In this document: positions 1-22,042 of the stretch, piece by piece
Numbering within the stretch: the stretch's first letter is position 1
Layout of the letters: every line of letters starts with the position of its first letter
IMG/VR virus record: IMGVR_UViG_3300029825_000697
Location: 1-30,409 of that record
Origin: a virus
Taxonomy: Duplodnaviria > Caudoviricetes
Reading direction: 5' to 3' (one strand)
DNA: 30,409 bases
Notes under the pieces: generated by a model
Told to the model about the DNA's origin: nothing
Database searches by the model: none
Seen by the model: only the letters and a program-made list of their open reading frames with translations
Position numbers and translations under genes: made by a program

Positions 1-21
1 TAATTATGCAGGGGTGTAATC

Positions 22-267
22 ATGGATATATTTGTTGAATTCATAGAAAGTTTACCAGTAAATAATCAAGAAGCAGTTGGTCAAATGTTAAATGAATTAT
101 CTGAAGATGATGCAGGATTCATTGAAGATTATTTGATTCATGGTAAAAATGTACCTGATAATATCATTGAAAGAATTGATAAGGTATTTGAAAATGTTGG
201 CTTTCCTCAATTCAATTGGGGTAATTGTCAACAGGAATTTTACAGTGGTAGGTTTGGGTTTGATTAA
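22..267 (+). CDS. Hypothetical acidic protein (81 aa)
   Basis: ORF with a GGGGTG RBS upstream, co-oriented with the island genes. Confidence 0.6.
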   Translation: MDIFVEFIESLPVNNQEAVGQMLNELSEDDAGFIEDYLIHGKNVPDNIIERIDKVFENVGFPQFNWGNCQQEFYSGRFGFD

Positions 268-274
268 GAAGTAT

Positions 275-326
275 TCGGACATATCGGACACCCTAAAAGG
301 GAAGTAAAATGTTAAGAAATGTTAAG
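275..326. repeat. Two tandem direct-repeat pairs upstream of terS
   Basis: TCGGACA at 275-281 and 284-290; AAATGTTAAG at 307-316 and 317-326. Confidence 0.6.
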
Positions 327-359
327 GTTTAATCTTAAAGAAAGGTGGGTGGGAACATT

Positions 360-818
360 ATGAATCACAGACAAAGAAGGTTTGCAGATGAATATCTAAT
401 AGACTTGAATGCTGAACAGGCAGCAATAAGGGCTGGTTATAGTGAAAGATATGCAAGGGGTAATGCACATAAATTGGTTGCAAAGGGTTGCATTAAAGAC
501 TATATAACGGAACAACTTGAAAAAATACACAGTGAAAAGATTGCAGATGTAGTTGAAGTTATGATTTATCTTACTTCAGTGATGAGAGGTGAGCAAACTG
601 AACAGACATTAAGATTAATTGGTGAAGGTTATCAGGAAATTACAGATATTAATATTTCAGCAAAAGAAAGATTAAAAGCTGCTGAATTGATTGGTAAAAG
701 ATATGGAATGTTTACTGATAAATTAAATGTTGAAGGAAGTATTCCAGTAGTAATTGTTGATGACCTTGAAGAAAATGATGAAGATGTTGATGATGTATCA
801 CCAATGGGTTTACACTGA
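360..818 (+). CDS. terS: Terminase small subunit (Terminase_2 type)
   Basis: RQRRFADEYLIDLNAEQAAIRAGYS HTH motif and KERLKAAELIGKRYGMFTDK. ATG at 360 preferred over GTG at 345. Confidence 0.93.
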   Translation: MNHRQRRFADEYLIDLNAEQAAIRAGYSERYARGNAHKLVAKGCIKDYITEQLEKIHSEKIADVVEVMIYLTSVMRGEQTEQTLRLIGEGYQEITDINISAKERLKAAELIGKRYGMFTDKLNVEGSIPVVIVDDLEENDEDVDDVSPMGLH

Positions 819-840
819 AGAATTAAAAGCTTTGATTAAT

Positions 841-873
841 AGTGATTAGTAACACATTAGTAACAAAATCACT
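841..873. repeat. Direct repeat nested in an inverted repeat downstream of terS
   Basis: ATTAGTAACA at 845-854 and 856-865, with AGTGATT (841-847) and AATCACT (867-873). Confidence 0.55.
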
Positions 874-934
874 TGGAAACATTGAGAAATGGCAATTAAA
901 AATATATTAAACAATAAGAAAGGGTGTAAAAACA

Positions 935-1546
935 ATGAAAACAGAGATTAAAAAGAAGATTCAACAGATTATTGATTCCTACAATACAGCTAAAAGGGAT
1001 ATAGCTGAAGAAATTGAAAAATGGGAAAATGACACAATGTATTCTATTGAGTACAAGAAAGAAAAGATAAAAGAACTTGAAGCGGATGCTGCTTCTTATG
1101 ATGCTTTATTCAATAACAAAGTAAAAGAAGTTATTGCTGAAGAAAAGAAAGCAATCATTGGTGAGCCTGAAAGTAAACCAGCTGATTATCAGGTTCAAAT
1201 ATCCAATGCTTTGAAATTCCTTGAATTGGCTGGTGATAAGCTAACTGATAACCAAGCATTAAATATTCTAAAACCTTTTCAGAATGATTATGAAACTATG
1301 ATGTTATTTCAACCAGTAGTTGGAGCATTAACCCAAAATCATGGTATTTGGAGCAAACACAATAAAATCTTTGAAAAAACTAATAGTTTTATGACACTTA
1401 TTAATAGCTTTGAACTTGCTGAAAAGACAATGGACAACTTATTTAATTTCAAAGAAAACAAGAGCCTTGCTGGTAATGTTAGACACAATATGTTTATGGA
1501 CAGTATCAACCATATTGAAAAATTAGTAAATGCTTTTGAAGCCTAA
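935..1546 (+). CDS. Hypothetical alpha-helical/coiled-coil protein (203 aa), in the position normally held by terL
   Basis: Long ORF with RBS; charged heptad-like N-terminus; no Walker motifs. Confidence 0.75.
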   Translation: MKTEIKKKIQQIIDSYNTAKRDIAEEIEKWENDTMYSIEYKKEKIKELEADAASYDALFNNKVKEVIAEEKKAIIGEPESKPADYQVQISNALKFLELAGDKLTDNQALNILKPFQNDYETMMLFQPVVGALTQNHGIWSKHNKIFEKTNSFMTLINSFELAEKTMDNLFNFKENKSLAGNVRHNMFMDSINHIEKLVNAFEA

Positions 1547-1560
1547 AGAAAGGGGTGTGA

Positions 1561-1755
1561 ATGATGAAATATCAAGATGATGCAGTAAATAAAACAGTTA
1601 ATGGCTTTAATGTAGGGGTTAGAATAGGTTCACCTTTGAAGGATGCACTTAATCCAACAGATGATGGCTATGACCATTTAAGGAAAGTAGAACATGTTGG
1701 AACTGTTCTTCAGGATGGGGCTGATAATGCAGTAAACCCAACACCAAAGGAATAA
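1561..1755 (+). CDS. Small hypothetical protein (64 aa) with three short internal repeats
   Basis: AGGGGTG RBS; repeats DDAVNKT, KDALNPT, DNAVNPT. Confidence 0.65.
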   Translation: MMKYQDDAVNKTVNGFNVGVRIGSPLKDALNPTDDGYDHLRKVEHVGTVLQDGADNAVNPTPKE

Positions 1756-1769
1756 TAATGCCAAATTCA

Positions 1770-1815
1770 ACAGTTGCCTTGATGGTGTACCACCTTTCAT
1801 TATCAGGGCAATTGT
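1770..1815 (+). other. 18-bp RNA-type stem-loop upstream of the sigma gene
   Basis: ACAGTTGCCTTGATGGTG (1770-1787) pairs with CATTATCAGGGCAATTGT (1798-1815) using G-U pairs; no U-tail. Confidence 0.55.
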
Positions 1816-1837
1816 CTATATTAGGGGGTGATGTGAT

Positions 1838-2635
1838 TTGACCAATGAAGAACTTGTAATTGAATATCAAAATGGTTATAAGGATGCAATGGATGAATTG
1901 ATTGAAAACAATATAGGTTTGGTCAAGTACTTCACCAATAAATATGGTGGATTTGCCAATATTACTTTGGATATTGAGGACTTGGAACAAGAAGCTTGGA
2001 TTGGTTTCATGAATGCAGTAGAAAAATATAAGTTCAATGAGGATGAACCAGTTCTATTTTCATCTTATGCATCTAAGGCTATAATGTACGGAATATTCAG
2101 GGCATTTGATGAAAACTCACAAAGAATGAAAAAAAGTGATAGGACAACCAAGGTATCTGTAATTAGTTTTTCAACACCCATATCAAGTGCTGATGATAGT
2201 GAAACAATGGAATACATACTTCCTGATAAAAAGGCAGAAGAGCCATTCAGAAAGATTGAACAAAAGCTTGATAATGAGATATTAAGAGAAGATATATTTG
2301 AACTGTTAGATGAAGTACTTGGAAATGACATTGATAAAAAGATTCTTATTGAGCGGTATGGTTTATATGATGAACCTATGACCCTTGATGAGATTGGAGA
2401 AAAACATTGTTTAAGTACTGAATGGGTTCGTAAATTAGAAATTGCTGCATTGCGTAAGATAAGACATAGTCCTATTGGAAAGGTATTCATGAACAAATAC
2501 TATGGTGATTATATCGGAATATTGGAAGAAAAGAAAGAATCAATCAATAAATATTATTCACCTGATATGGTGGTTTCTCAAATGGCTGGTGTTGATAACT
2601 TAATTAACAATATTCTAAAGAAATATGAAGCTTAA
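1838..2635 (+). CDS. Sigma-70 family RNA polymerase sigma factor (sporulation-sigma-like architecture)
   Basis: Region 2 DLEQEAWIGFMNAVEKY...FSSYA; region 4 HTH MTLDEIGEKHCLSTEWVRKLEIAALRKIR; TTG start with GGGGGTG RBS. Confidence 0.92.
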   Translation: MTNEELVIEYQNGYKDAMDELIENNIGLVKYFTNKYGGFANITLDIEDLEQEAWIGFMNAVEKYKFNEDEPVLFSSYASKAIMYGIFRAFDENSQRMKKSDRTTKVSVISFSTPISSADDSETMEYILPDKKAEEPFRKIEQKLDNEILREDIFELLDEVLGNDIDKKILIERYGLYDEPMTLDEIGEKHCLSTEWVRKLEIAALRKIRHSPIGKVFMNKYYGDYIGILEEKKESINKYYSPDMVVSQMAGVDNLINNILKKYEA

Positions 2636-2649
2636 TCAGGGGGGATAAT

Positions 2650-2880
2650 TTGAATAAATTAGAACATAAAAAGAATATAATCCAAAAACTAATAATCCTA
2701 TATTCAGAGGATTTGAAATCCTTCTTAATCTTAACACAAAATGCCCAAGGTATTCTTCCAAAGAGTACAATTCAAAAGATGGTTGAGTATTGCAATGAAA
2801 GAAAAAATATAATTATTGGGTTAAACAATAGATTAATAGAACTAATTCAAAGGGGTGAACAAATTGAATCAAAACATTGA
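2650..2880 (+). CDS. Hypothetical protein (76 aa)
   Basis: AGGGGGG RBS plus TTG start; tight operon packing. Confidence 0.6.
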   Translation: MNKLEHKKNIIQKLIILYSEDLKSFLILTQNAQGILPKSTIQKMVEYCNERKNIIIGLNNRLIELIQRGEQIESKH

Positions 2881-3214
2881 AGTTATTAATAAAGATTTAT
2901 GGGCGGTAAAGTTTAGCTTCCTTCCCTTCATATCAGAAATTGATTATAAACCTGATTCAGATATACCAGCATATCAAGAATTTGGAAGGGCAACCAATGA
3001 TGGAATATTGATATTAAACAAGGATTATCCAGGCTTTAGAATTCTAAAAGAACACATTCCAAAGGTTATGAAAAAGAAGGACAAGCAATTAAAGAAGGAA
3101 ATTAAGGCTTCACAGGCTTTAAAAAACAAAACAGATTGGCAAAATGTATATCATGCAATGCTTCAGATTGAAGCAGAAAGAAGAAAAAAGAAAGGGGTGA
3201 AATATTGGAATTGA
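2864..3214 (+). CDS. Hypothetical protein in tail-assembly-chaperone position
   Basis: AGGGGTG RBS then TTG at 2864 (ORF track start 2855); two genes upstream of the tape measure gene. Confidence 0.65.
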   Translation: MNQNIEVINKDLWAVKFSFLPFISEIDYKPDSDIPAYQEFGRATNDGILILNKDYPGFRILKEHIPKVMKKKDKQLKKEIKASQALKNKTDWQNVYHAMLQIEAERRKKKGVKYWN

Positions 3215-3426
3215 AACATAATGTAAAATATTTCTTTATTCAAAATGATGGAAGTGATATTCTTATCACCCAAGAATTAACCCAAAAAGATTTAGCAAAA
3301 CTTTTACTTTCACAGAATGTAATTTTGGATTCTGTAGGTATTAGTGCAGCAAAACCATATAGAAGAAGAAAAAAAGAAAGAGGTGAAATAAATGGCAACA
3401 ATAAGAACTGCAATTCAAGTTCATGA
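3205..3426 (+). CDS. Hypothetical protein (73 aa) immediately before the tape measure gene
   Basis: RBS plus TTG; overlaps both neighbours; lies in the -1 frame relative to the upstream ORF. Confidence 0.55.
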   Translation: MELKHNVKYFFIQNDGSDILITQELTQKDLAKLLLSQNVILDSVGISAAKPYRRRKKERGEINGNNKNCNSSS

Positions 3427-5398
3427 TGGAATGACACCTGGGTTGAAAGCAATGACCAATGCATTGAATATGACAGTATCAAGCTTTGAAGCACTTCAAA
3501 CCGCTTCAGGTAATGCAATTGATTCAAGTAGTGTTCAAGCAGCAAGGGCAGAATTAAACAAGGCTGAAATGGCTTTTGATGAAATAGAACAAGAGATTAA
3601 ACAAGCCAATGAAGCACAACAACAGTTCAATAATAGTGTTCAGAATGGTCAAGGTGCAGCTGGTGGATTATTAAGTAAAATAAAAAATATAGCGGTAACA
3701 ATGGGAGCTGCTTTCAGTGTAAAAAAGGTTATTGGTTTATCAGATGAAATGACCCAAACAACAGCAAGGCTTGATATGATGAATGATGGACTTCAAACCA
3801 CAGGACAACTTCAGGATATGATATTTCAATCAGCACAAAGGTCAAGGGGTGCATATCAATCAACAGCTGATGCAGTTGCTAAAATGGGGATATTAGCAAA
3901 GGATGCTTTTAGTTCCAATAATGAAGCAATAGCTTTTGTTGAACAGTTAAATAAACAGTTCACTATATCAGGAACAAGTGCAATGGGGATTGATGCAGCA
4001 ATGTTACAATTAACACAGGCAATGGGGCAAGGTGTGTTAAGGGGTGAAGAATTAAACAGTGTATTTGAACAAGCACCAACCATAATACAATCAATAGCTG
4101 ATTACTTGGATATTCCAATTGGTCAAGTAAGGAACATTGCACAGGAAGGAAAAATTACAGCGGATGTTGTTAAAAATGCAATGTTTGCTGCTGCTGATGA
4201 AACCAATGCAAAATTTGAACAGATGCCAATGACATTTTCACAAGTTGGAACAATACTTGGTAATACCCTACTTCAAACCTTTGAACCAGTTATTCAGGGG
4301 ATAGGTAGAGGGGCACAGTTAATATATGACAATTGGTCAACTCTTGAACCTATATTTTGGGGGCTTGTTACAGCAGTTGGTGCTTATGCTGCAATCACAG
4401 CAGTATCAAATGCAGTTACATGGCTTGGTGTTGCTGCAAATAGGGAATTGATTACAACATTACTTTCTAATCCAGCTTTATGGATTGCCCTTACAATTGG
4501 TGTTTTGATTGGAATGATATATAAATGGGTTCAATCAGTTGGTGGGCTTGAAATAGCTTGGAAGATTGCAATGAATGGAATTATGACAGCTTGGGATTGG
4601 GTTCAAATAGGATTCTTTACAGGTGTTTATTGGGTACTTGATTTATGGAATAAGCTTCAACTTGGAGCAATGACAGCAAGTGTTGGAATTCAAAACTTTA
4701 TGGGTGATATGAAAGCTGGGGTTCTTAATATCCTTCAGAATATGGTCAATGGTGCAATAGGTATCATCAATGATTTTATAAACATCTTGAATAAGATACC
4801 TGGGGTTTCAATTGAAGCAGTTCAAGAGGTTACCTTTGGAACAACAGCACAGCTTGAAAATGATGCTGCTAAAATAGCAAGGCAGAATGAATTGAAAGAT
4901 TATAGAACCCAAATTGAAGCTGGTATGGCTGAAAGGGATGCTTCACTTGAACAAATGAAAGTTGATGCAAGAAGTGCAACTTCACAAAGACAGAATGAAA
5001 TAAGTGCAACTTCACAAAGACAGAATGAAATAAGTGCAACTTCACAAAGACAGAATGAAATAAGTGCAATGCAAGCAGCACAAGCAGCTAAAGCAGCACA
5101 GGATAATGACTTTTCATCCATCTTTGATAATGCTGATTCAATGGGGCATATAGCAGATACTGCTGGTAATACTGCAAGAATGGCAGATACAATGGATGCT
5201 TCGGAAGAAGATTTGAAATATCTTCGTGATTTGGCAGAACAAGAAGCTATAAACAGATATACAACCGCTGATATTAATGTTGATATGAGTGGTATGCAAA
5301 ACATTGTAAATAATGATATGGATTTAGATGGTGTAGTTGATTATCTTGGTGAAGGTGTTTATGAAGCAATGGAAATAGCAGCGGAAGGTGGTGTATAA
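3392..5398 (+). CDS. Phage tail tape measure protein (clostridial myovirus type, 668 aa)
   Basis: Tape-measure domain (QLTQAMGQGVLRGEELNSVFEQAP...MPMTFSQ), hydrophobic Trp-periodic middle region and C-terminal LKYLRDLAEQEAINRYT. From memory this resembles C. difficile phiC2/phiCD119-like TMPs. Confidence 0.92.
   Translation: MATIRTAIQVHDGMTPGLKAMTNALNMTVSSFEALQTASGNAIDSSSVQAARAELNKAEMAFDEIEQEIKQANEAQQQFNNSVQNGQGAAGGLLSKIKNIAVTMGAAFSVKKVIGLSDEMTQTTARLDMMNDGLQTTGQLQDMIFQSAQRSRGAYQSTADAVAKMGILAKDAFSSNNEAIAFVEQLNKQFTISGTSAMGIDAAMLQLTQAMGQGVLRGEELNSVFEQAPTIIQSIADYLDIPIGQVRNIAQEGKITADVVKNAMFAAADETNAKFEQMPMTFSQVGTILGNTLLQTFEPVIQGIGRGAQLIYDNWSTLEPIFWGLVTAVGAYAAITAVSNAVTWLGVAANRELITTLLSNPALWIALTIGVLIGMIYKWVQSVGGLEIAWKIAMNGIMTAWDWVQIGFFTGVYWVLDLWNKLQLGAMTASVGIQNFMGDMKAGVLNILQNMVNGAIGIINDFINILNKIPGVSIEAVQEVTFGTTAQLENDAAKIARQNELKDYRTQIEAGMAERDASLEQMKVDARSATSQRQNEISATSQRQNEISATSQRQNEISAMQAAQAAKAAQDNDFSSIFDNADSMGHIADTAGNTARMADTMDASEEDLKYLRDLAEQEAINRYTTADINVDMSGMQNIVNNDMDLDGVVDYLGEGVYEAMEIAAEGGV
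4972..5069 (+). repeat. Perfect 30-bp tandem repeat, about 3.3 copies, in frame within the TMP (SATSQRQNEI x3)
   Basis: AAGTGCAACTTCACAAAGACAGAATGAAAT at 4972, 5002 and 5032, plus 8 bp. Confidence 0.97.
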
Positions 5399-5401
5399 AA
5401 T

Positions 5402-5764
5402 ATGTTAAACAATCATAGAAAAGCACTTGAAATGCTATGGAAAGGAATTTGCACAGTGCAAGTAATGCAAGAAGTTTTCAATGAAGTAACAAAAAGAACT
5501 GAATTCAAAGAAGTTACACTTTATGAAAATAAACCTTGTAAGTTATCCTTTGAAAGTATCACCAGTGCAAATGAAGTTGATAATGTAGCTTCAATATCCC
5601 AAGGAACTAAATTATTCATTGGCAATGAGTATTTAATCCCTGCTGGTTCAAAGATAACTGTTACCCAAAATGGTAAAACAACTGTTTATTCCAATAGTGG
5701 TGAACCTGCTATTTATAGTAATCATCAGGAAATTCCTTTACTGTTATTTGAAAGTTATGCATAA
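5402..5764 (+). CDS. Phage head-closure / head-tail adaptor protein
   Basis: RKALEMLW..CTV...PCKLSF...KLFI...IPAGSKITVT...SGEPAIY.NHQEI pattern typical of clostridial myovirus neck proteins (recognised by eye). Confidence 0.72.
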   Translation: MLNNHRKALEMLWKGICTVQVMQEVFNEVTKRTEFKEVTLYENKPCKLSFESITSANEVDNVASISQGTKLFIGNEYLIPAGSKITVTQNGKTTVYSNSGEPAIYSNHQEIPLLLFESYA

Positions 5765-5786
5765 TACAAATTAGAGTTCAATAATG

Positions 5787-5826
5787 AAGAAGCATCCCTT
5801 ATTGGTAGATGCTTCTTTTCTTTCTT
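5787..5826 (+). terminator. Rho-independent terminator closing the terS-TMP operon
   Basis: AAGAAGCATC (5787-5796) / GATGCTTCTT (5808-5817) followed by a T-rich tract. Confidence 0.75.
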
Positions 5827-6064
5827 GCCTATAGCTTGTCAAATTTCCCCTGTTTTAAGCAAACAAATCATTGGGCAATAGGATTACACCCCTGAAGCAA
5901 TAAAACCCCTTACAGGGCAAAATAGGGGCAAGGTGGAAGGAAGTAAATCCATAACAGGAAGTGGTTCATCACCTTCAACAGTATCCTTGAAAAAATGACC
6001 CTCTAAAATGCCCTACAATCAATTTTAATTATGATTAGGGGTAAATGTACCAGTAGGTAATAAC

Positions 6065-6102
6065 AAAAGCACCTGATGCCCAATTTCTTGGTCAGGTGCT
6101 TT
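6065..6102 (-). terminator. Rho-independent terminator for the minus-strand repressor operon
   Basis: AAAGCACCTGA (6066-6076) / TCAGGTGCTTT (6092-6102). Confidence 0.7.
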
Positions 6103-6114
6103 AATGATCCTTTG

Positions 6115-6327
6115 CTAATCATTCAATAGTTCTTCCCATGTCTTATTTTGCTTAATACACTCTTTATATAGGGCAGTGATGGTTTCAAACCTACCAACTA
6201 AACTTAACCCATCAAAAGAATATCCAAAAGGTTCACCACCCACTTTTTCATTATATTCAAGGTAAGCTTTCCCTTCTTCATCAAGCTGGTACATTTCTAT
6301 TTCTTCAGGTAACAGTTTAATTTTCAT
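6115..6327 (-). CDS. Small hypothetical protein (70 aa)
   Basis: RBS AAGGGGT; third gene of the repressor transcript. Confidence 0.65.
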   Translation of the reverse strand: MKIKLLPEEIEMYQLDEEGKAYLEYNEKVGGEPFGYSFDGLSLVGRFETITALYKECIKQNKTWEELLND

Positions 6328-6378
6328 TTTGTGTTACCCCTTCCTTAATCTTATTTTTTGAACTTGTTCAAAATTAGT

Positions 6379-6573
6379 TCATTTAATATTGAACTCTTGA
6401 AAATTAATTTTCAAAGGTAATTTAATTAAATCAATATACAGTGGAATATTAATTCCTTTTTCTTTTGCTTCATCATGTAATTTTATAATATTGGTAATGG
6501 CAGTATCAGAATAACCAAGTTGTTTTGCTTTGGCAATGAATTCATCTTTGGTCATTTCATTAGATTCATTCAT
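6379..6573 (-). CDS. Small hypothetical protein (64 aa)
   Basis: GGGGTG RBS directly after the repressor stop codon. Confidence 0.6.
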   Translation of the reverse strand: MNESNEMTKDEFIAKAKQLGYSDTAITNIIKLHDEAKEKGINIPLYIDLIKLPLKINFQEFNIK

Positions 6574-6587
6574 GTTATTTCACCCCA

Positions 6588-6803
6588 TCATTCTTCAGGT
6601 GAATCAGGAACATATTCCATTATATCCCCTGGTTGACAATCTAAAGCCTTACATATCTTATCAATCATATCAGTTTGTACCACCTTATCCTGCCTTAATT
6701 TCGCCATTGTTGGTGCTGAAATATTAGCAGCCTTTCTTAAATCTACATCTTTTAAATCTCTATCAACTAACAGATGAAAAAGTTTCTTAAATGATATTGC
6801 CAT
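6588..6803 (-). CDS. Cro/C1-type (XRE, HTH_26-like) transcriptional regulator
   Basis: ISFKKLFHLL..RDLK..DLRKAANISAPTMAKL...IDKICKALDCQPGDIMEY. Confidence 0.9.
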   Translation of the reverse strand: MAISFKKLFHLLVDRDLKDVDLRKAANISAPTMAKLRQDKVVQTDMIDKICKALDCQPGDIMEYVPDSPEE

Positions 6804-6826
6804 TTTATCACCTACCTTTCATTAAT

Positions 6827-6937
6827 ATAATATATGCAAAAACTAAAAAAATCAAGTATTCACTTAAAATAATTATTGACAACTTAATTTTTAAGTGTTA
6901 ATATAAGTGTAAGCTAAATATTTAAGCGTTCACTTAA
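6827..6937. promoter_or_regulatory. Divergent sigma-A promoters with an operator palindrome
   Basis: Plus strand: TTGACA (6876-6881), 17 bp, TAATAT (6899-6904) with extended TG. Minus strand: TTGATT (6855-6850), 17 bp, TATTAT (6832-6827). Palindrome ACTTAA-TTT-TTAAGT at 6882-6896; CACTTAA half-sites at 6861 and 6931. Confidence 0.8.
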
Positions 6938-6959
6938 CAAGATTGAAAGGGGTGATAAC

Positions 6960-7445
6960 TTGAGTAAAAAGAAAAGGTATAGTGTTTATAAGCTTACATC
7001 CCCAAAGGGCAAGATATATATTGGAATTACAAGCATATTACCTGAAGCACGTTGGAAAGATGGTAAAGGATATGATTACAACATTTATTTATCATCAGAT
7101 ATTAAAATGTATGGATGGGATAACTTCAAACATGAAATATTATTTTGTGGATTAAGTGAAGCTGAAGCCAAACAAAAAGAGATTGAACTTATTGACAAGT
7201 ATAATTCCACAAATTTTTTACAGGGGTATAACATTGAGCATGGTGGGGATTTAAGAAAGGGAAGGTCATATAAAGCAGTAAAATGCCTTACAACCAATAT
7301 ATGCTTCAGTTCCATTAAAGAAGCGGGTGAATTTTATAACATAAGAAAAAAGTATATTACCAATTGCTTAACTGGTAGAGCAAGCTTTGCTGGTGAATTT
7401 AATGGTAAAAAATTGACTTGGGCTTATGTAAAGGAAAGGATGTGA
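6960..7445 (+). CDS. GIY-YIG endonuclease with C-terminal NUMOD1-like DNA-binding domain (homing-endonuclease-like)
   Basis: SVYKLTSPKGKIYIGIT...RWK; E in AKQKEIELI; GYN motif; C-terminal FSSIKEAGEFYNI...ITNCL. Confidence 0.85.
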   Translation: MSKKKRYSVYKLTSPKGKIYIGITSILPEARWKDGKGYDYNIYLSSDIKMYGWDNFKHEILFCGLSEAEAKQKEIELIDKYNSTNFLQGYNIEHGGDLRKGRSYKAVKCLTTNICFSSIKEAGEFYNIRKKYITNCLTGRASFAGEFNGKKLTWAYVKERM

Positions 7446-7678
7446 TTATCATAGACCATGCAATAAATTCACTACAACCATTTTATGAAGTAACCTTGGA
7501 TTGGTTTGTTGAAGAACATAGGACAGGTAAGTATAAGAAGTATTCAGAGAACCCTTATTTTGACGAATTAAAGGCTTTAATTAATGCAATGAACATATTA
7601 AGGCAGTATATGGGTTGGGATAAAATAAGGCTAAAAGATGAGGTTGAATTCTATTTACAAGATGAAAGGGGAATATAA
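7442..7678 (+). CDS. Hypothetical protein
   Basis: GTG start overlapping the GIY-YIG stop (ORF track start 7418). Confidence 0.6.
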   Translation: MIIIDHAINSLQPFYEVTLDWFVEEHRTGKYKKYSENPYFDELKALINAMNILRQYMGWDKIRLKDEVEFYLQDERGI

Positions 7679-7679
7679 A

Positions 7680-7886
7680 ATGTTTAATTATGAAAATTTG
7701 GAAAAGAGAATCAATAATATGTTTGGTGGTGTAGCTGCATTTGGAAAGCAAATAGGATTGGATGAACAAGAAGTAAAATCCAAGTTGGAAAACATATCAG
7801 AATTTACAATGGCAGAAATTGAAAAAACTGCTGAAATATTAAATATCTTTCCTGAAGAAATACCTGCATACTTCTTTGAAGTTTAA
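7680..7886 (+). CDS. DUF739-like Cro-type HTH protein
   Basis: MFNYENLEKRINNMFG..AAFGKQIGL....SKLEN..EFT..EIEK.AEILNI..EEIPAYFF; ATG at 7680 with AAGGGG RBS. Confidence 0.82.
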   Translation: MFNYENLEKRINNMFGGVAAFGKQIGLDEQEVKSKLENISEFTMAEIEKTAEILNIFPEEIPAYFFEV

Positions 7887-7913
7887 TATTGAAAATTAAC
7901 TTTCAAGAATAAG

Positions 7914-7948
7914 AAAAAAGCACTTACAAAAGTAGGTGCTTTTTTTTT
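7914..7948 (+). terminator. Rho-independent terminator
   Basis: GCACTTAC-AAAA-GTAGGTGC followed by T9. Confidence 0.85.
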
Positions 7949-8017
7949 AGTGCATAAGATTGAACAAGGTGATAAGATAATAGATAATAAGAAAATTATA
8001 AAAAGAGGTTACCAAGG

Positions 8018-8350
8018 ATGGAAATAAATATTTCTGAAGAAACAAAAAATACCATTATGGCTTTTACAGGATTGACTATTGAAGAATTCTTGGAAAAGGC
8101 AAAAGATGATATTCTTCAAAAATATCAGGATGGTAATAAAATATCAATCAAAGAAGCTGCTGAATTGATGGGAAAGTCACAGCAGTTTGTAAGGGTTGGA
8201 TTACAAAGGGGAATTCTTCCTTTTGGGGTAGCTATTCAAATAAGTAGTAAAAAATACAGTTATTATATTTCACCAAAGAAATTTTATGAATATGTTGGTT
8301 ATAACACCTCTACTATATCTGAAGAAAGTTCAAAGCAAAATGAAAAATAG
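8018..8350 (+). CDS. Excisionase-like winged-helix DNA-binding protein
   Basis: ISIKEAAELMGKSQQFVRVGLQRGILPFG...YYISPKKF; last gene before the att site. Confidence 0.65.
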   Translation: MEINISEETKNTIMAFTGLTIEEFLEKAKDDILQKYQDGNKISIKEAAELMGKSQQFVRVGLQRGILPFGVAIQISSKKYSYYISPKKFYEYVGYNTSTISEESSKQNEK

Positions 8351-8496: not shown

Positions 8497-8508
8497 GAGT
8501 GGGAGTAA
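8497..8508 (+). other. Putative attR core duplicating the guaA 3' end
   Basis: GAG TGG GAG TAA = E-W-E-stop, the conserved GMP synthase C-terminus (TIEWE*). It sits at the phage/host boundary and is followed by a terminator. Confidence 0.7.
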
Positions 8509-8654: not shown

Positions 8655-10052
8655 TCACATTTTCTTCGGCATGGAATGTATGGCTTTGCCTATGCATCCA
8701 CACACAGCTTCATAAAAAACCTCAGATAATGTGGGATGCGCAAATATGGCATCTTTTATATCTTCAACAGTAAGGCTGTTCTGTATAGCTAATGAGCCTT
8801 CATGAACTATATCGCTTGCATGAGGTCCCATAATGTGCACTCCAATTATTTTATGGCTTTTTTTCTCGGCAATTACTTTAATAAAGCCCTGTCCTTCACC
8901 CATGGTCAGCGCTTTGCCATTCGCACCAAACATTGATTTTCCTACTACATACTCCACGTTGTTTTCTTTTGCTTCCTCTTCGGTAAAACCAACACAAGCA
9001 GCTTCAGGAAAAGAAAATACACAAGAAGGTATAGCATTATAGTTTACTTTCGAATTGCCACCGTAAATATTTTCAACGCACACCTTTCCTTCTTCTGATG
9101 CAATATGAGCAAGCATAACTCCACCAATAACATCTCCTATGGCATAAACACCCTCCGCAGATGTTTTATAATTTTCATAAACTTTTATACCTTTTTTATC
9201 ATACTCAATTCCTGCAGTTTCTAAATTCAGGCCTTCAGAATTAGGCTTTCTTCCAGCTGCCATCAGCAACAAATCGCAATCAAATTTTAAATCTCCTTTG
9301 CTTCCTCCTACAATTGTTTTTAATTCACTGCCGTAAGATTTCACTTCTTTCAATGCTGAACCTGTTACAATTCTAATGCTTTGTTTTTTTAGGTATACAG
9401 TCAACTTTCTAGAGAGTTCATCATCTAACCTGTACAATATTTTAGGCAAAAATTCTACTATTGTTACCTGTGTGCCAAGGGAAGCAAATATACCTGCAAA
9501 TTCAATTCCTACCACACCACCTCCAAGGATGACCATACTTTTGGGAATATACTCGAAATTTAATACCTCATCACTTGTAACAACACCTTTTAAATCAACT
9601 CCAGGCACAGAAACTGCTGACGGAGACGAGCCTGTAGCAATAATTATATTTGATGCGGTTATTTCTTCTGTCTTTCCTTCGCAAAAAACTTCAAGTGTTT
9701 TAGGCCCTTTGAATACTGCTCTACCATTTACTACTTCAATGCCATTTCCTTTAAGCAACATATTTATACCATTCACCAGTTTATTAACAACTTCAATTTT
9801 CTTTTTTTGCGCCTTGTGCATATCAAAATTGTATTTATCCAAAGACACACCAAATTCATCTGCTTTTTTTAAGCAATTTATCACTTCTGCACTCTTATAA
9901 AACGTCTTTGTAGGTATGCATCCTCTATTTAGACATGTACCTCCTAATTTATTCTCTTCTATAAGTGTTACATTTGCTCCAAGCTGAGCACCTCTTATAG
10001 CGGCTTCATAGCCACCGGGACCACCACCGATAATTACCAGATCTTTTTCCAT
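8655..10052 (-). CDS. lpdA: Dihydrolipoamide dehydrogenase (glycine cleavage L protein)
   Basis: GGGPGGY, redox-active GGTCLNRGCIP, GGGVVGIE, HPTLSE. Start at MEKDLVIIGG (10052) with AAAGGA RBS. Confidence 0.96.
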   Translation of the reverse strand: MEKDLVIIGGGPGGYEAAIRGAQLGANVTLIEENKLGGTCLNRGCIPTKTFYKSAEVINCLKKADEFGVSLDKYNFDMHKAQKKKIEVVNKLVNGINMLLKGNGIEVVNGRAVFKGPKTLEVFCEGKTEEITASNIIIATGSSPSAVSVPGVDLKGVVTSDEVLNFEYIPKSMVILGGGVVGIEFAGIFASLGTQVTIVEFLPKILYRLDDELSRKLTVYLKKQSIRIVTGSALKEVKSYGSELKTIVGGSKGDLKFDCDLLLMAAGRKPNSEGLNLETAGIEYDKKGIKVYENYKTSAEGVYAIGDVIGGVMLAHIASEEGKVCVENIYGGNSKVNYNAIPSCVFSFPEAACVGFTEEEAKENNVEYVVGKSMFGANGKALTMGEGQGFIKVIAEKKSHKIIGVHIMGPHASDIVHEGSLAIQNSLTVEDIKDAIFAHPTLSEVFYEAVCGCIGKAIHSMPKKM

Positions 10053-10065
10053 AGTTACCATTCCT

Positions 10066-11520
10066 TTATTTATTATAGCGAAGCACGGGCTTCCTTGCTG
10101 CCAAAACTTCATCTAGCCTTGACACTATTGTAGTATGTGGTGCAGAATTAACCATTTCAGCGTTATTTTCAGCTTCATCTGCTATTTGCCTCATAGCAGC
10201 TACAAAACCGTCCAATGTTTCTTTTGATTCGCATTCCGTAGGCTCAATCATGATTGCTTCCGAAACAATAAGCGGAAAATAAGTCGTAGGCGGATGGTAT
10301 CCAAAGTCCAGCAGCCGCTTTGCAATATCCAGTGTTGATACTCCGTTTTTCTTTTGTAGATCTCCTGATAACACACATTCGTGCATACATTTCCTGTTAA
10401 AAGGCATGTAATATCTATCTTTGAGATTTGCCGCAATATAATTCGCATTAAGCACGGCGTTTTCGGCAACAGATTTTAAACCTTCAGGGCCCATGCTCAA
10501 TATATATGCATATGCTCTTATACAAACACCGAAATTACCATAAAAGGACCTTACCTTTCCTATGGACAAAGGCTTTTTATAATCAAAAAAATACTTATTA
10601 TTTTTTTCTTCAATAACCGGAACAGGGAGGAAATCTGCCAGATGTTTTTTAACACCTACAGGCCCTGAACCCGGTCCACCACCGCCATGAGGGGTACTGA
10701 AAGTTTTATGAAGATTGAGGTGTACCACGTCAAAGCCCATGTCTCCAGGCCTTGTTATACCTAAAATAGCATTTGCGTTTGCTCCGTCATAATACATCAA
10801 TCCTCCTGCTTTATGTACTATTTCGGAAATCTTCAGTATGTTTTCGTCAAACAACCCGAGGGTATTAGGATTTGTAAGCATAAAACCCGCAATTTCATCG
10901 CTCATTAAGGATTTTAACGACTCTAAATCAACAAGACCTTTTTCATTTGATTTTACTTCTAAAACATCAAATCCTGCTACTGAAGCAGATGCCGGATTAG
11001 TACCATGAGCAGAATCTGGTACAATTATTTTGTTCCTTTTGCTATCTCCATTATTTTTATGATAGGCCCTTATTATCATAAGACCTGTAAGCTCTCCATG
11101 AGCCCCTGCGGAAGGTTGCAGTGTAAACCGATCCATTCCCGTTATTTCAGAAAGCATGCCGCCAAGATTATACATAAGCTTCATTGCCCCTTGAACTGTT
11201 TCTTCAGGCTGGTATGGATGAAGATTTGTAAAGCCGTCATATCTTGAAACAACCTCATTCACTTTTGGATTGTACTTCATTGTGCAGCTTCCCAGAGGAT
11301 AAAAACCCGAATCAACTCCGTGATTTCTTTGAGAAATTTTTGTAAAATGACGTACTGCATCTAATTCGCTTACTTCAGGAAGCTCAAGCTCCTTTACCCT
11401 TAAAAAACCCTTCCCTAAAATTTCTTCCGGAGGTTTAACAGGCACATCACATTCAGGCAGAGAATATGCTTTTCGTCCCGGCCTGCTTATTTCAAATATT
11501 AATGGTTGATATTTCTGCAT
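10066..11520 (-). CDS. gcvPB: Glycine dehydrogenase (decarboxylating) subunit 2
   Basis: [22 protein letters not shown] lysine motif [22 protein letters not shown]. Confidence 0.97.
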
Positions 11521-11521
11521 A

Positions 11522-12859
11522 TTATTCAGCCGCCTTTCTTGTTAATTCATCTATTTCTTTTTTAGTACGCTTTTCAGTAACTGCAACAAGCCATCCATTT
11601 TTTAATTCGAGATAGTCTTTTTCAATTTTGTAGCCTCCGATTATTTTACTTTTTAAAAGCTTATCATTAACCTCCTTAACATGTTCATTGCTTTTTACCA
11701 CAAATTCCTTAAAGAATGGTTTAGAAAACACCGGGCTGAATTTTCCCGTTTTAATCAACTGATCATAGGCATAATGAGATTTTTGCAAACATAGATTCGC
11801 TACTTCTTTTAATCCTTCTTTTCCCATTATCGTTAGATAGATCGTAGCTATTAGAGCATTTAACGCCTGGTTTGAACAGATGTTTGACGTTGCTTTTTCC
11901 CTTCTTATATGCTGTTCCCTGGTCTGAAGAGTGAGAACAAACCCTCTGTTTCCATTTTTATCAACTGTTTCTCCCACAATTCTCCCTGGCATTTTACGCA
12001 TCATCTTTTCTGTAACAGCCATAAATCCAAGATACGGACCGCCAAAGTTAAGGCTGTTTCCTAAAGATTGCCCTTCTCCTACAGCTATATCCGCTCCTAA
12101 TTCACCGGGACTCTTTAACAATGCAAGAGATATGGGATCCGAATTTACGATCAGCATACTCTTGTTGCTGTGTATTATATCTTTAATATCGGCAATATCT
12201 TCTACGATTCCAAAAAAATTTGGATTTTGAACTATTACCGCTGCAGTATTTCCATTTATTTTGTTTTTTAAGTCACTCGAACATGTTTGGCCGTCCTCAT
12301 ATTTTAATTCAATTATTGACATATTTCTAAACTGTGCATATGTATTTAATACCTTTCTAACTTCCGGATGAACTGTAGATGATATTAAAATTTCTGATCT
12401 TCTGGTAGACCGGCATGCCATTATGGCTGCTTCAGCCGTAGATGTAGCTCCATCATACAAAGACGCATTGGCAACAGGAAGCCCTGTAAGCTCACTTATC
12501 ATTGTTTGATATTCAAAAATTGACTGCAGTGTACCCTGGCTTATTTCAGGTTGGTACGGAGTGTATGATGTATAAAATTCCTGCCTTGAAATCAGCTGGT
12601 CAATAACTGCAGGAATAAAATGGTCATATACACCTGCACCTAAAAAGCATATATAATCATCAAGATTATAATTTTCGCAGGATAATGCTTTTATATTTTT
12701 AACCAGTTCCATTTCAGACTGGGCATCAGGTATATTCAAACCTCCTTTTAAGCGTACCTCATTAGGAATTTCTTCAAATAAAGATTCAATACTGTCACAG
12801 CCTATATCATTCAGCATTTGCTCTCTGTCTTCACTGGTATTCCCAATATATCTGTTCAT
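11522..12859 (-). CDS. gcvPA: Glycine dehydrogenase (decarboxylating) subunit 1
   Basis: [42 protein letters not shown]; start 12859 from GGAGG spacing. Confidence 0.97.
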
Positions 12860-12870
12860 CATATCCTCCT

Positions 12871-13245
12871 TTATTCGCATATTTTTTCATAATCTTCTGC
12901 AGAAAGGAGTTTTTCAATTTCTTCAGTACTGTCAATTTCTAAAATAACAAACCAAGCTTCGTAAGGGTTCTCATTAATTAAACCAGGGTTATCAATCAAC
13001 TCTTCATTCACCTTCGTAACCATTCCGGAAACAGGAGCATAAACATCTGAAGCAGCTTTAACTGATTCTAAAACCACAAACTGATCTCCTGACTTAACAG
13101 CTGTATCAACTTCAGGGAGCTCTACATAAACAATTTCTCCCAAACGGTCCTGTGCATAATCCGTAATTCCGACATAAGCTTTATTTCCTTCAACCTTTAC
13201 CCATTCGTGTGAATCAGAATACTTTAATTTCTCCAATATTTTCAT
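12871..13245 (-). CDS. gcvH: Glycine cleavage system H protein
   Basis: [14 protein letters not shown], lipoyl-lysine motif ESVKAASD. Confidence 0.97.
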
Positions 13246-13264
13246 AATAAATCTCCTCGTATAA

Positions 13265-13300
13265 TATGTTTAGAACTACATTTTAGGTGTTCTAAACATA
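13265..13300. promoter_or_regulatory. Perfect 12-bp inverted repeat just upstream of gcvH
   Basis: TATGTTTAGAAC-N12-GTTCTAAACATA. Confidence 0.55.
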
Positions 13301-13409
13301 AATTTATTTTTTAGGCAAATTGCAATTCTTATTGAACTAATTTTATCACTATCACATCTATTAATAATACTAAGTAAGTACTACTAAACATGAAAGCCAA
13401 AGTCTTCAG

Positions 13410-13476
13410 GCGCATATCTGAATCGTAAGGAGGCGTAGCCGACTGGAGATTCTAATATGCGCTCCGGCTTCGCCGA
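13410..13476. repeat. GC-rich REP-like nested hairpin element
   Basis: GCGCATAT/ATATGCGC and GAATC/GATTC stems; GGC-GTA-GCC and CGGC-TTC-GCCG triloop hairpins within AT-rich DNA. Confidence 0.5.
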
Positions 13477-13549
13477 TGTGCTAATAACGTCCAATCCATA
13501 TTACAATTTGCTTTAAATCTAATGTTTTATTCATTTTCAATTTTTAATT

Positions 13550-13780
13550 GAGATATCCTAATGCTATAATAGAATTAAAGAATATTAGCGAAGGATAATT
13601 CAATTCCTCCTTGCAAAACCCTTTGGTTATTGCCTAAAAAGCTTGCTTCCTGACTTAACTGTCATATTCTGCTTACTACAGATGCCGCATCTCTTTGATT
13701 AGACCAACAGCAAGGTTAGTTTTCAAAGATGAATGCTAATAATGCGAGGTTTCAGTCAGCAGTTAAGATTAGGATATCTC
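13550..13780 (+). ncRNA. Candidate IS110 bridge RNA region
   Basis: 13-bp inverted repeat GAGATATCCTAAT (13550-13562) / ATTAGGATATCTC (13768-13780); internal CTTAACTG/CAGTTAAG pairing; located upstream of an IS110 recombinase. Confidence 0.55.
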
Positions 13781-13824
13781 TTTTACTAATTGTTCTTCAA
13801 TGACCTATGAAAGGTGGTGATTTC

Positions 13825-15102
13825 ATGAAAAACAATTTTTTATCGACTTTATTTGTTGGTATTGATGTTAGCTCTAAAACTAACGTTTTGTGTGCTCTTG
13901 ATTTTCAAGGTGATAAACTTCTCAATCTAAAGGCTTTGAATAATCAGCCTGGTGCTGAATCTATTTTAGAAAGTATCTTGGACTGTTTAAATTCTAGTAG
14001 CTTAAAATATGTTGTTATCGCCTTAGAATCAACTTCTTTTTACAGTACTCACATTGCTAATTTTTTATCTTCTAATGAGGTTCTTTTGGCATATACACCT
14101 ATGGTTTATTGCCTTAATCCTAAGACTATTGCCAATTACAGAAAGTCTTTTATTGATATGGATAAAACTGACCCACTAGATGCCTTTATCATTGCTGATT
14201 TTGCAAGGTGTGGTAGAATTACATCTCAGCCTTGGCGAGGTGCTCAGTTTCTTGCTTTACAAAGACTTACCAGACACAGGTTACATTTGATTGAATCTGC
14301 CTCTAGAGAAAAGGCATATATGGTCTCTAATATTTATTTAAAGTTCAGTCAATTAGCTGTTGTTAAAGATGAGGACAAGCCATTTTCTAATACCTATGGG
14401 GCTACCTCTAAAGCAGTCTTAACTGAATTTCTTTCTTTAGATGATATTGCTTATTCCTCTTTAGAAGATTTAGTTGAATTCATTAAATCTAAAGGTAAAA
14501 ATCGCTTTAGCAATCCAGTAGAAACAGCTAAACTATTACAAAAAGCTGCAAGGGATTCTTATCGTTTAGATAAGGTTCTTTATGAGCCTTTAAATATTTC
14601 AATTGCTTCTTCCTTTAATGTTATCAAAGCTCTGCAAATTGAAATTAAAGAGATTGATAAAGCAATTGAAAAAAATATTAAAGGCATTAATACTACTGAA
14701 TATCAGTCACTGATTTCTATTCCAGGTATTGGCCCTGTATTTGCTAGTGGCATTTTGGCTGAAATTGGTTCTATTACTTCTTTTTCTTCCAATGATGCAT
14801 TGGCTAAATATGCTGGCTTAACCTGGAGAATCAAGGAGTCTGGTGATTATTCCGCTGATGAAACTAATATGACCAAAACCGGGAACAAGTACCTCAGATA
14901 CTATTTGATAGAGGCTGCTAATAGTGTTAAAAACAATGTTCCTGAGTTTAATAAGTATTACCATAAAAAGTTTGATGAAGTAACTTCTCATCAACACAAA
15001 CGAGCACTCGCATTAACATCTCGTAAACTAGTACGCCTGATTTTTGGATTGCTGACCAAGAATCAAATCTACTCCAGCAATAAAGCTGGTGAGGTACAAT
15101 AA
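13825..15102 (+). CDS. IS110 family transposase/recombinase (DEDD RuvC-like plus Tnp domain)
   Basis: GIDVS, LESTSFY, KTDPLDA, IPGIG, ESG, GNKYLR; ATG at 13825 after AAGGTGGTG. Confidence 0.96.
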   Translation: MKNNFLSTLFVGIDVSSKTNVLCALDFQGDKLLNLKALNNQPGAESILESILDCLNSSSLKYVVIALESTSFYSTHIANFLSSNEVLLAYTPMVYCLNPKTIANYRKSFIDMDKTDPLDAFIIADFARCGRITSQPWRGAQFLALQRLTRHRLHLIESASREKAYMVSNIYLKFSQLAVVKDEDKPFSNTYGATSKAVLTEFLSLDDIAYSSLEDLVEFIKSKGKNRFSNPVETAKLLQKAARDSYRLDKVLYEPLNISIASSFNVIKALQIEIKEIDKAIEKNIKGINTTEYQSLISIPGIGPVFASGILAEIGSITSFSSNDALAKYAGLTWRIKESGDYSADETNMTKTGNKYLRYYLIEAANSVKNNVPEFNKYYHKKFDEVTSHQHKRALALTSRKLVRLIFGLLTKNQIYSSNKAGEVQ

Positions 15103-19281: not shown

Positions 19282-19300
19282 GGAAAGTGAGGTGCTAGAT

Positions 19301-20218
19301 ATGCAAAGACATATGCCAATAGGCTATAAAATAGTAGATGGAAAAATAGTCCTTAATGTTGAAAAAGTAGAAGTAATACAAAAAATATTTAAAGACTATT
19401 TAAATGGAGTATCTATGATTACCATAGCAAAGGAATTAACGGCTACAGGATTTCTTAATGCAAATAATAAGCCTAATTGGAATCATGGTTCTGTAGGCAG
19501 GATACTAGAAAACAGTAAATACTTGGGAGATAGTATGTATCCTCAAATAATAGATGAGGTCACCTTTGAATTAGTACAGCAACAAAGAAAAGCAAAAAAT
19601 AAGAAATTAGGCAGAACACCTCAGATTAATACTAGGAAAAATCAAAGTGTATTTACCAGTAAATTAAAATGTGGAGAATGTGGGAATATTTATCGCAAAT
19701 ACATTGAACATGCAGGAAGACCATCAGAAAAGAGTAACTGGAAATGTAAAAGATACATCTACCAGAATAGGGTTCATTGCAGAAACTTATTTCTAACTGG
19801 AAAAGATATAGAAAATATTTTTATATCAGCAACAAATAAAATTTTATCAAGAATGTGGATATTAGATAAAGAAAAGAAAAAAGAACCATCAAAGATGACT
19901 ATTGAAATTAGAAATTTAGAAGAACGAATCAAAGAGCTAGAAGACGAAAAACAATTTTCATCAAAGGAACTAGCAGAATTAATATTTAAAAGAGCAAAAG
20001 CCTATTACAAAATATCTAAAATAGATGATTATGATTACACGACTAAGAAAATTAAAGAGGAACTTCTTGATAAACAACCACTTACAGAATTTAATGAAGA
20101 ATTATTTATAAATATAGTAGAAGAAATAATCATTTATAAGGATGGAAAGATTCAAGTGGAATATATAAATGGAATTATGATGGAGGAAGACTATGGTGAA
20201 ATAAGAAAGGATGAATGA
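19301..20218 (+). CDS. Serine recombinase-like protein 2 lacking the catalytic domain
   Basis: Begins at the recombinase DNA-binding domain (HMPIGY); CGECG zinc ribbon; no RVS motif. Confidence 0.9.
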   Translation: MQRHMPIGYKIVDGKIVLNVEKVEVIQKIFKDYLNGVSMITIAKELTATGFLNANNKPNWNHGSVGRILENSKYLGDSMYPQIIDEVTFELVQQQRKAKNKKLGRTPQINTRKNQSVFTSKLKCGECGNIYRKYIEHAGRPSEKSNWKCKRYIYQNRVHCRNLFLTGKDIENIFISATNKILSRMWILDKEKKKEPSKMTIEIRNLEERIKELEDEKQFSSKELAELIFKRAKAYYKISKIDDYDYTTKKIKEELLDKQPLTEFNEELFINIVEEIIIYKDGKIQVEYINGIMMEEDYGEIRKDE

Positions 20219-21873: not shown

Positions 21874-21881
21874 GGGTATAG

Positions 21882-21974: not shown

Positions 21975-22042
21975 GTTGGTAGATTAGATAGAATAAATAG
22001 TCAAAAGATTTGAGAAGATTTGGCAAATAATATGATTCTGGG

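Follow-up and report, generated by a model that had tools for sequence, protein, structure and literature searches.

A 14.1-kb element at guaA is a likely phage parasite whose own ruler protein would go into stolen tails

Introduction

Why a phage satellite should carry its own tape measure protein (TMP) is a question left open in 2025-26 by the TMP-bearing satellites already published, the PLEs of Vibrio cholerae (PMC12987554) and the EPIPs of Mycolicibacterium (PMC12822802). The same question is raised by the DNA studied here, a 30,409-nt stretch of viral sequence (the window) in which an earlier note had seen a compact operon encoding a small terminase (TerS), a TMP, and a head-closure protein, and had proposed a satellite that might have tails of private length. 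We find that the operon belongs to a 14.1-kb element at guaA that is likely a phage parasite, one whose own ruler protein would go into stolen tails. New here are the family to which the element belongs, the bias of this family towards neck and DNA-delivery genes among those it captures, and the near-identity of the element's TMP to that of a phage; with length also the same, this contrasting case allows length and divergence to be separated from the benefit of owning a TMP.

Boundaries and gene content of the element

The left end of the element, missing from the window, was recovered from a contig of 99.6% identity (L130) that carries guaA, an attachment site, an integrase, a repressor, and a primase. 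Together the two sequences define both ends of the element, whose size falls within the 10-20 kb anticipated in the earlier note, and an empty guaA integration site is present in another sample (a contig of run X6). The tyrosine integrase (L130:1653-2747) is accompanied by attL and attR at the end of guaA, where SaPIbov elements also integrate. An HTH_3 repressor on the minus strand of L130 is divergent from HTH and xis-like genes, regulators judged by HTH family and divergent arrangement rather than by AlpA, MerR or Stl profiles, and the primase is of the P4 family TIGR01613 (231 bits, cut-off 109). Genes for TerL, portal, capsid, sheath, tube, and baseplate were found neither with Pfam in 33 scanned window ORFs nor with PHROGs in 17 element ORFs, and are also absent from the recovered left arm. 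These results bear out the proposal of a satellite-like island that has integrase and primase and lacks any module for head or tail tube. The full structural modules that the earlier note had allowed might lie just upstream do not appear there. No tRNAs were found in the window, an Rfam search of it returned only one sub-threshold chance match, and promoter-like sites were no commoner than in shuffles (34 vs 43.5).

The nine genes of the operon (360-5764; Table 1) are all intact and co-oriented, as had been claimed, each preceded by a purine-rich RBS-like sequence and separated, in order, by 116, 14, 82, 14, -26, -10, -35, and 3 nt. The operon also ends in a terminator-like structure, with a hairpin at ~5786-5818 and a U-rich tail (-16.2 kcal/mol, z -2.9, 3 of 200 shuffles as good) that a simple terminator scan does not list. 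A non-coding stretch at 5840-6105 is conserved as well; apart from L130 it was found in only 4 other satellite loci and is not family-wide.

Table 1 Features of the element within the window
Feature	Position	Strand	Evidence and remarks
u81, small conserved gene	22..267	+	cluster in 12 loci
small terminase (TerS)	360..818	+	PF03592 E 1e-31, phrog_51
p203, family core gene	935..1546	+	helical bundle (model); in 30/38 groups
p64, small conserved gene	1561..1755	+	17 loci
sigma-70-family factor	1838..2635	+	Pfam regions 2 and 4, phrog_351, TIGR02937 above cut-off; 21/38 groups
p76, accessory gene	2650..2880	+	3 loci
p119, family core gene	2855..3214	+	36/38 groups; almost always directly upstream of TMP
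p73	3205..3426	+	slot holds gp10-like tail-completion gene in L001, L003, L056
tape measure protein (TMP), 668 aa, myovirus type	3392..5398	+	PF20155; phrog_1068 E 6e-181
head-tail adaptor	5402..5764	+	phrog_615 E 9e-37
intrinsic-terminator-like hairpin	5786..5826	+	folding, shuffles
right accessory arm: HTH (minus strand), GIY-YIG nuclease, p86, DUF739, xis-like HTH	6588..8350
attR core GAGTGGGAGTAA	8497..8508	+	copy of guaA 3' end; partner attL at L130:1531

The terS allele is exchangeable, since the window and L001 copies are only 31% identical while the flanking DNA of L001 is 99% identical. The sigma-70-family factor likely drives late transcription. p203, a candidate for capsid or packaging redirection by its position, gave a confident structure model that resembles generic four-helix bundles (VIA Z of at most 10.4, rmsd 3.4, 122 aligned), with no match to capsid-morphogenesis families, a best Foldseek E of 0.07, and only unnamed clusters in the ESM Atlas. 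p119 matched no known family, had no match in the ESM Atlas, and reached at best E 0.76 and Z 4.8 in fold searches; these misses do not indicate that either protein has a new fold. The adaptor, 71% identical (aa) to that of the complete myovirus G001 and with no sequence match among solved structures, is probably of the head-closure type, judging from gene position in the phage neck module.

With its integrase, divergent repressor pair, primase, TerS, size within 10-15 kb, and lack of capsid and lysis genes, the element resembles PICIs and SaPIs as set out in the SatelliteFinder description (PMC10085698). In contrast to PICIs, it has its own sigma factor and no recognised capsid-morphogenesis gene, and both its TMP, a core gene, and its phrog_615 adaptor, an occasional one, are classed as forbidden in that model (PMC10085698), so that such elements would likely be missed or taken for defective prophages. 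The earlier note had placed an own TMP outside the PICI standard; as a satellite feature it has precedents in the PLEs (PMC12987554) and EPIPs (PMC12822802). The element also differs from cf-PICIs, as it lacks its own capsid, portal, and TerL throughout.

A recurring family in Bacillota

The element belongs to a recurring family of 38 dereplicated groups in Bacillota, confirming the expectation of recurring synteny and arguing against a one-off deletion product. The family core is terS, p203, sigma/RinA, p119, and TMP. The TMP is present in 35 of the 38 groups, starting at most 50 nt from p119 in 28 of the 35 groups that have both genes, and gene order is kept across Clostridia and one Bacilli genome. 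Among 125 loci, 53 have p203 or p119 and 61 have genes for sheath, tube or a tail chaperone; no locus falls into both sets. Neither p203 nor p119 had a match in 50,697 phage records. p119 is diverse (173 clusters at 50% identity), and in all six new matches from randomly drawn genomes it adjoins a TMP, and the DNA fetched with it holds neither sheath nor tube. A 134-aa gene takes the place of the primase in 10 of the 38 groups.

The phage genes captured beyond the core include those of neck and lumen proteins, namely gp10 (7 of the 38 groups), the adaptor (5), and MuF (2), while sheath, tube, terminator, and Ad1-type adaptor were each found in 0 of 38. The adaptor is thus accessory, which takes the neck protein out of the core system in which the earlier note had placed it. 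TerL and portal occur in one group (L008) and a capsid gene in one other (L035, with a scaffold fragment), and L012 has a baseplate module. The apparent source of the TMP, adaptor, gp10, MuF, and baseplate genes is the family of phiC2/CDMH1/EJ-1-like myoviruses and G001, full phages of 40-56 kb that have TerL, portal, capsid, sheath, tube, chaperone, and a related primase, but lack p203 and p119.

Phage gene blocks retained in L008, L012, L035, and L037, a few split TMP frames (L020, L029, L056; the L156 protein is short, at 573 aa), and a primase 67% identical (nt) to that of G001 are what might be expected if these loci were deletion remnants of myoviruses, in which a functionless TMP lingers or is renewed by recombination. 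We consider such decay very unlikely. The eight elements with both ends have a tight size range of 12.1-14.9 kb, gene order is the same in Clostridia and in a Bacilli genome, core genes p203 and p119 are missing from phage records, and the guaA site is found empty. Furthermore, the dN/dS check proposed in the earlier note gave 0.10-0.32 for the TMP in 11 of 12 satellite pairs, indicating purifying selection, and in close pairs TMP, p203, and p119 all stay well under 1, although part of the TMP signal may date from time spent in phages.

A phage-like tape measure protein

The window TMP gene is 92.8% identical (nt) to that of G001, and this identity is confined to window positions 3376-5398. 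The G001 TMP, adaptor, and gp10 in turn all have satellite copies as their best matches (89%, 71%, and 79%), in a comparison where two entries labelled phage, L066 and L067, are short contigs with neither sheath nor tube. The satellite TMPs do not form a single clade (monophyly rejected, p-AU 1e-52) and have thus been exchanged with phages repeatedly. In two genomes that hold both a satellite and a myovirus, the TMPs of the two share only 45% and 34% identity.

The earlier note had proposed that the satellite TMP could give satellite particles a tail length of their own, and EPIP and PLE tails do differ in length from those of their helpers (PMC12822802, PMC12987554). Some family members likewise have long TMPs of 868-1140 aa, but these group with long phage TMPs, and the median is 650 aa both in satellites (n = 29) and in phages (n = 53, not dereplicated). 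The 668 aa of the window protein is not a meaningful length. It stems from a 30-nt repeat (4965-5069) that is present three times and whose copy number varies between samples, with two copies in L130 and L001 (658 aa) and one in G001 (650 aa), and the resulting difference of 18 residues amounts to ~2-3 nm on the scale of the PLE paper (PMC12987554). Private tail length is therefore highly improbable.

Equal length and near-identity are also what would be expected if the satellite supplied extra copies of limiting, low-copy virion parts, with TMP first among them, so that more tails are finished and both TMPs mix freely. Most of the captured extras are low-copy virion parts, and none of them is a sheath or tube gene. 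However, supplementation leaves unexplained why low-copy terminator, Ad1-type adaptor, and chaperone were captured in 0 of 38 groups, and why the TMP N-terminus is distinct in three gp10-adjacent elements, and no identified small-capsid gene would cause a shortage of tails. We regard it as unlikely.

No XkdN-like tail chaperone was found in any of the 38 groups, and the satellite TMP would thus need the chaperone of the helper. p119 sits where the tail-assembly chaperone of PLEs would be. Its position next to the TMP, its absence from phage records, and the joint absence of both genes from L005 would fit interference, in which a TMP made without chaperone, or p119 itself, blocks helper tail assembly. 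Rta and Tai provide precedents for tail blocking by satellites (PMC12987554, PMC11364771). In an Rta-like version, p119 would be the inhibitor and the satellite TMP a resistant replacement, but with 93% identity to its phage counterpart this TMP would be a poor resistant substitute. Nor does p119 follow the TMP allele, as L004 and L015 share 82% TMP but 35% p119 identity, the window and L015 67% and 80%, and the Mantel correlation of TMP with p119 (r 0.52) is lower than with p203 (0.73). PADLOC gave no match. Interference is rather unlikely on this evidence.

Proposed role in helper tails

Our preferred reading, to which we assign a probability of about 0.55, is that the element is PICI-like, a satellite of temperate clostridial myoviruses, and that its phage-compatible TMP is built into helper-made tails. 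In this process, a helper with an SPP1-type head and a contractile tail (phiC2/G001-like) would lift repression, and the element would excise and replicate with its own primase. Its sigma factor would drive transcription from terS to the TMP, and its TerS would recruit the TerL of the helper to satellite DNA. The satellite TMP would then assemble with the chaperone, baseplate, tube, and sheath of the helper, and the need to fit these parts would explain why it keeps to a phage-like sequence and the phage length. The gain could lie in controlling the lumen of the tail and the route of DNA delivery, or in guaranteed access to tails, rather than in altered tail length, with the head-closure gene an optional piece of the same kit. 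A head of ~42 kb would have room for three 14.1-kb copies of the element. As G001 TerS is only 26% identical to that of the window, G001 need not be the helper itself. Also weighing against this reading are the low TMP identities of the co-resident myoviruses, the split or short TMP frames, the L005 element with neither p119 nor TMP, and the members with capsid, TerL, portal or baseplate genes.

PLEs offer the closest support for TMP incorporation, as capsid-less satellites of a contractile-tailed phage whose own TMP enters tails and is required for transfer (PMC12987554). The PLE TMP is 20% identical to that of the helper, differs by 95 aa in length, and has its own chaperone alongside (PMC12987554). 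In contrast, the TMP described here reaches 93% identity with a phage protein, is of equal length (650 vs 658-668 aa, with G001 as a proxy rather than a proven helper), lacks a recognisable chaperone, and has been exchanged repeatedly, and the helper is likely temperate. At 93% identity there is no obvious basis for selective incorporation, unlike in PLEs. By gene descriptions the EPIPs are similar satellites of ~11 kb with TerS, a head-tail adaptor, a stopper, and a TMP, but they are described with a serine integrase, a scaffold gene, little helper homology, longer tails, and an actinobacterial host (PMC12822802), whereas the element has a tyrosine integrase and no scaffold match.

More tentatively, the family could be building a private DNA-delivery core in stolen myovirus tails, renewing, through exchange of genes, a TMP matched to that of the phage, and adding modular proteins that touch the TMP or the DNA end (tail-completion, head-closure, and MuF), with p119 sorting or blocking helper tails. 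This would be lumen piracy by mimicry, as opposed to the divergence of PLEs. In phage 80alpha, a gp10-like TCP binds TMP N-termini within the head-tail joining ring (PMC11661146).

A sheath search with one query gave no match in 3 of 5 other carrier genomes, which likewise tells against the preferred reading. Two cultured, named species carry members of the family, Thermotalea metallivorans (L007), whose genome also holds a myovirus prophage, and Caloramator quimbayensis (L006), and the system is therefore testable. p119 and p203 can serve as markers for the family; with the centres left out, p119 marked ~0.75% of the genomes sampled (2 of 399 from Clostridia, 4 of 400 from Bacillota).

A satellite-like island at guaA that carries a tape measure gene

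Because the window spans the complete 30,409-bp record, the left end of the element is missing from it. A metagenome contig, L130, is 99.6% identical to window positions 1-7972 and extends further left. The operon has the content and order described in the earlier note, from terS through the genes for the tape measure protein (TMP) and the head-tail adaptor (phrog_615) to a terminator-like hairpin. The total size of the element is 14,112 bp, and with the left end from L130 included it contains no gene for TerL, portal, capsid, sheath, tube, or baseplate. The upstream DNA that the earlier note wished to see inspected holds an integrase and a primase. A contig from sequencing run X6 represents the empty site, running from the end of guaA straight into window position 8509 onward (sequence checked). 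Both ends are also present in seven relatives, of 13,959, 14,657, 12,060, 14,904, 13,889, 14,615, and 14,801 bp.

Features of the element and its right-hand neighbors (window coordinates unless stated)
Feature	Position	Remarks
guaA, att core, tyrosine integrase, repressor, divergent HTH and xis-like genes	att core at L130 1531	left extension of L130
P4-family primase, Mor-like activator, small genes		remainder of L130 left extension
terS	360-818	
p203, p64		uncharacterized; after terS, before sigma
sigma	1838-2635	
p76, p119, p73		uncharacterized; after sigma, before TMP
TMP	3392-5398	
adaptor	5402-5764	
terminator-like hairpin		after adaptor, operon end
right arm: HTH, GIY-YIG, p86, DUF739, xis-like	ends 8497-8508	ends at GAGTGGGAGTAA
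host gcvH, gcvPA, gcvPB, lpdA, then IS110 transposase	8655-15102	glycine-cleavage genes beyond GAGTGGGAGTAA

Window positions 5840-6105 are non-coding, with a strong hairpin at 6066-6102 (z -5.3), and are common to L001, L015, L005, and L009. A second island at 17692-29710 has three serine recombinase genes and, after them, an LmuB-like SMC gene (PADLOC E 3e-31), next to which lie two unknown genes; it also contains a PDC-M62A/B ATPase-HNH candidate defense pair.

The element has the integrase, regulation, primase, and TerS expected of PICIs (PMC10085698), but it carries tail genes, which the PICI model excludes, and it is therefore not filed as a PICI member. PLEs make chimeric tails using a chaperone of their own together with a divergent TMP, with further tmp-bearing satellites listed in Extended Data Fig. 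10 (PMC12987554), EPIPs encode TerS, adaptor, stopper, and TMP (PMC12822802), and Tai is a tail assembly blocker (PMC11364771). Carriage of a TMP by satellites is already known from PLEs and EPIPs, and the element is a further variant of such satellites. It is a real, well-delimited member of a satellite family in Bacillota that is apparently undescribed so far, with no account found in the literature searched, most subscription papers lying outside that search.

A recurrent p119-TMP layout

Searches with p203, p119, and TMP gave 121 loci, which with three phage records and the window made 125. Either p203 or p119 occurs in 53 of these and sheath, tube, or chaperone in 61 (sheath and tube being scored in high-GC loci through stand-in antisense ORF clusters); none has both, and 11 are unclassified. 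The 53 loci form 38 groups, with p119 in 36, TMP in 35, p203 in 30, sigma in 21, a RinA-like gene in 20, integrase in 21, primase in 15, and terS in 17 plus 7 terS-like, counts that are floors, with absences valid for the fetched DNA only, because many contigs are truncated. In two of the three groups without TMP the contig stops before the TMP position, and in the third, L005, both p119 and TMP are absent. The earlier note proposed a search for recurring terS-sigma-TMP-adaptor synteny at guaA; synteny is conserved in many genomes, guaA lies at the left end in four of the seven two-ended relatives, and the adaptor is found in 5 of 38 groups. Carriers with a name include Caloramator, Thermotalea, an Acholeplasmatales MAG, and Desemzia.

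A check with less bias came from screening genomes drawn at random for p119, which was present in 2/399 Clostridia and 4/400 Bacillota (centers excluded) and in 0/21 further genomes of one family. The layout is the same in all six carriers (one of which, G146, is L021): p119 is followed by TMP, and the fetched DNA contains neither sheath nor tube. In one, L156, the TMP is short and an integrase is not visible. Neither p119 nor p203 had a match among 50,697 phage records.

A 128-160-aa unknown gene replaces the primase in ten groups (L002, L004, L008, L009, L012, L021, L029, L032, L047, and L053), which may mark a subtype without a replication gene. At L005:3638-4400, the right arm, a tRNA-3'-end-like sequence, and the integrase follow one another, resembling an excised-circle junction or tandem. 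The right end of L007 has two att-core copies (18255 and 19106), which enclose a duplicated toxin-antitoxin-like pair.

Structural genes captured next to TMP

Extra structural genes adjoin TMP in some of the 38 groups: gp10-like tail completion in 7, LysM and XkdQ in 3 each, MuF in 2, further baseplate genes in 1-2, and TerL with portal, and capsid, in 1 each, beside the five with an adaptor. Some of these captures are non-independent. L158 and L155 contribute a further adaptor and an XkdR. None of the 38 groups had a gene for sheath, tube, chaperone, terminator, or Ad1-type adaptor in the fetched DNA. The same tally gave 0 for scaffold, which is nevertheless present as a fragment in L035. The baseplate genes could be hitchhikers, since phage baseplate genes lie after TMP; gp10, adaptor, and MuF, unlike these, are not downstream of TMP in phages. 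At L035:65-1632, a scaffold fragment, a capsid gene, and an adaptor all lie upstream of sigma-p119-TMP on a truncated contig, possibly a capsid-bearing variant of the family. L008:12144-16092 has TerL, portal, and MuF flanked by two p119-like genes, with no capsid gene, and L012:9501-13834 and L037 have a LysM-baseplate module after TMP, with no sheath or tube within the contig.

Phage 80alpha has a gp10-like protein that caps the DNA and binds TMP N-termini within the head-tail joining ring, and a minor capsid protein that leaves together with the DNA at ejection (PMC11661146); SPP1 gp16.1 is described as routing DNA into the cell (PMC11099176). The three elements with gp10 immediately before TMP (L001, L003, and L056) share a distinct TMP N-terminus, a pattern defined after the data were seen and found in 0/26 other satellite starts and 0/11 phage starts examined. 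Between L001 and the window, 17 of the first 30 TMP residues are identical, against 48 of the 50 that come after. Linkage alone could explain this association.

Exchange of TMP with phages and the possible helper

The nearest cultured relatives of the window TMP are in the myoviruses phiC2, phiMMP01/03, and CDMH1. G001, a 40,755-bp metagenomic myovirus record, is the nearest source for TMP, adaptor, and gp10, and encodes a 650-aa TMP with 92.8% nucleotide identity to that of the window. This match is limited to window positions 3376-5398; beyond it, G001 and the element have in common the adaptor at 77% identity, the primase at 67%, and a short stretch of 154 nt at 73%. A 30-nt repeat is present in three copies in the window, two in L130, two in L001, and one in G001, and because of the extra copies the window TMP is 18 residues longer than that of G001.

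A tree of the first 330 TMP residues was built from 29 satellite and 24 phage rows, taken from 81 after leaving out near-duplicates and unclassified and misframed sequences. It contains 12 changes between satellite and phage labels, of which well-supported branches force at least 8, and satellite monophyly is rejected (p-AU 1e-52), although the tree has long branches and its labels still cluster more than they do in shuffles. The dN/dS calculation proposed in the earlier note gave 0.10-0.32 in 11 of 12 satellite TMP pairs, including those of the all-satellite clade L006, L007, and L021, and 0.52 in one. L020, L029, and L056 each have a split TMP frame, which counts against a uniform TMP function.

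The near-identity of satellite and phage TMPs and their repeated exchange would fit a need for compatibility. They also argue against the tails of private length envisaged in the earlier note, as does a median TMP length of 650 aa in satellites and phages alike. Judged from sequence, the element most likely operates as PICIs do with an added PLE-like step, in which the helper's chaperone would be used to build the element's TMP into helper tails. The main rivals are interference with the helper by p119 or TMP, against which the loose co-variation of p119 and TMP speaks, and simple supplementation of the helper by the element.

Two carrier genomes have full myovirus prophages with a TMP of similar length and only 45% and 34% identity. 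One sheath query against five other carriers returned no match in three and distant matches only in two. The TerS of G001 is 26% identical to that of the window and 46% identical to that of L001. Among elements otherwise 99% identical, terS is swapped, as might be expected if helpers change.
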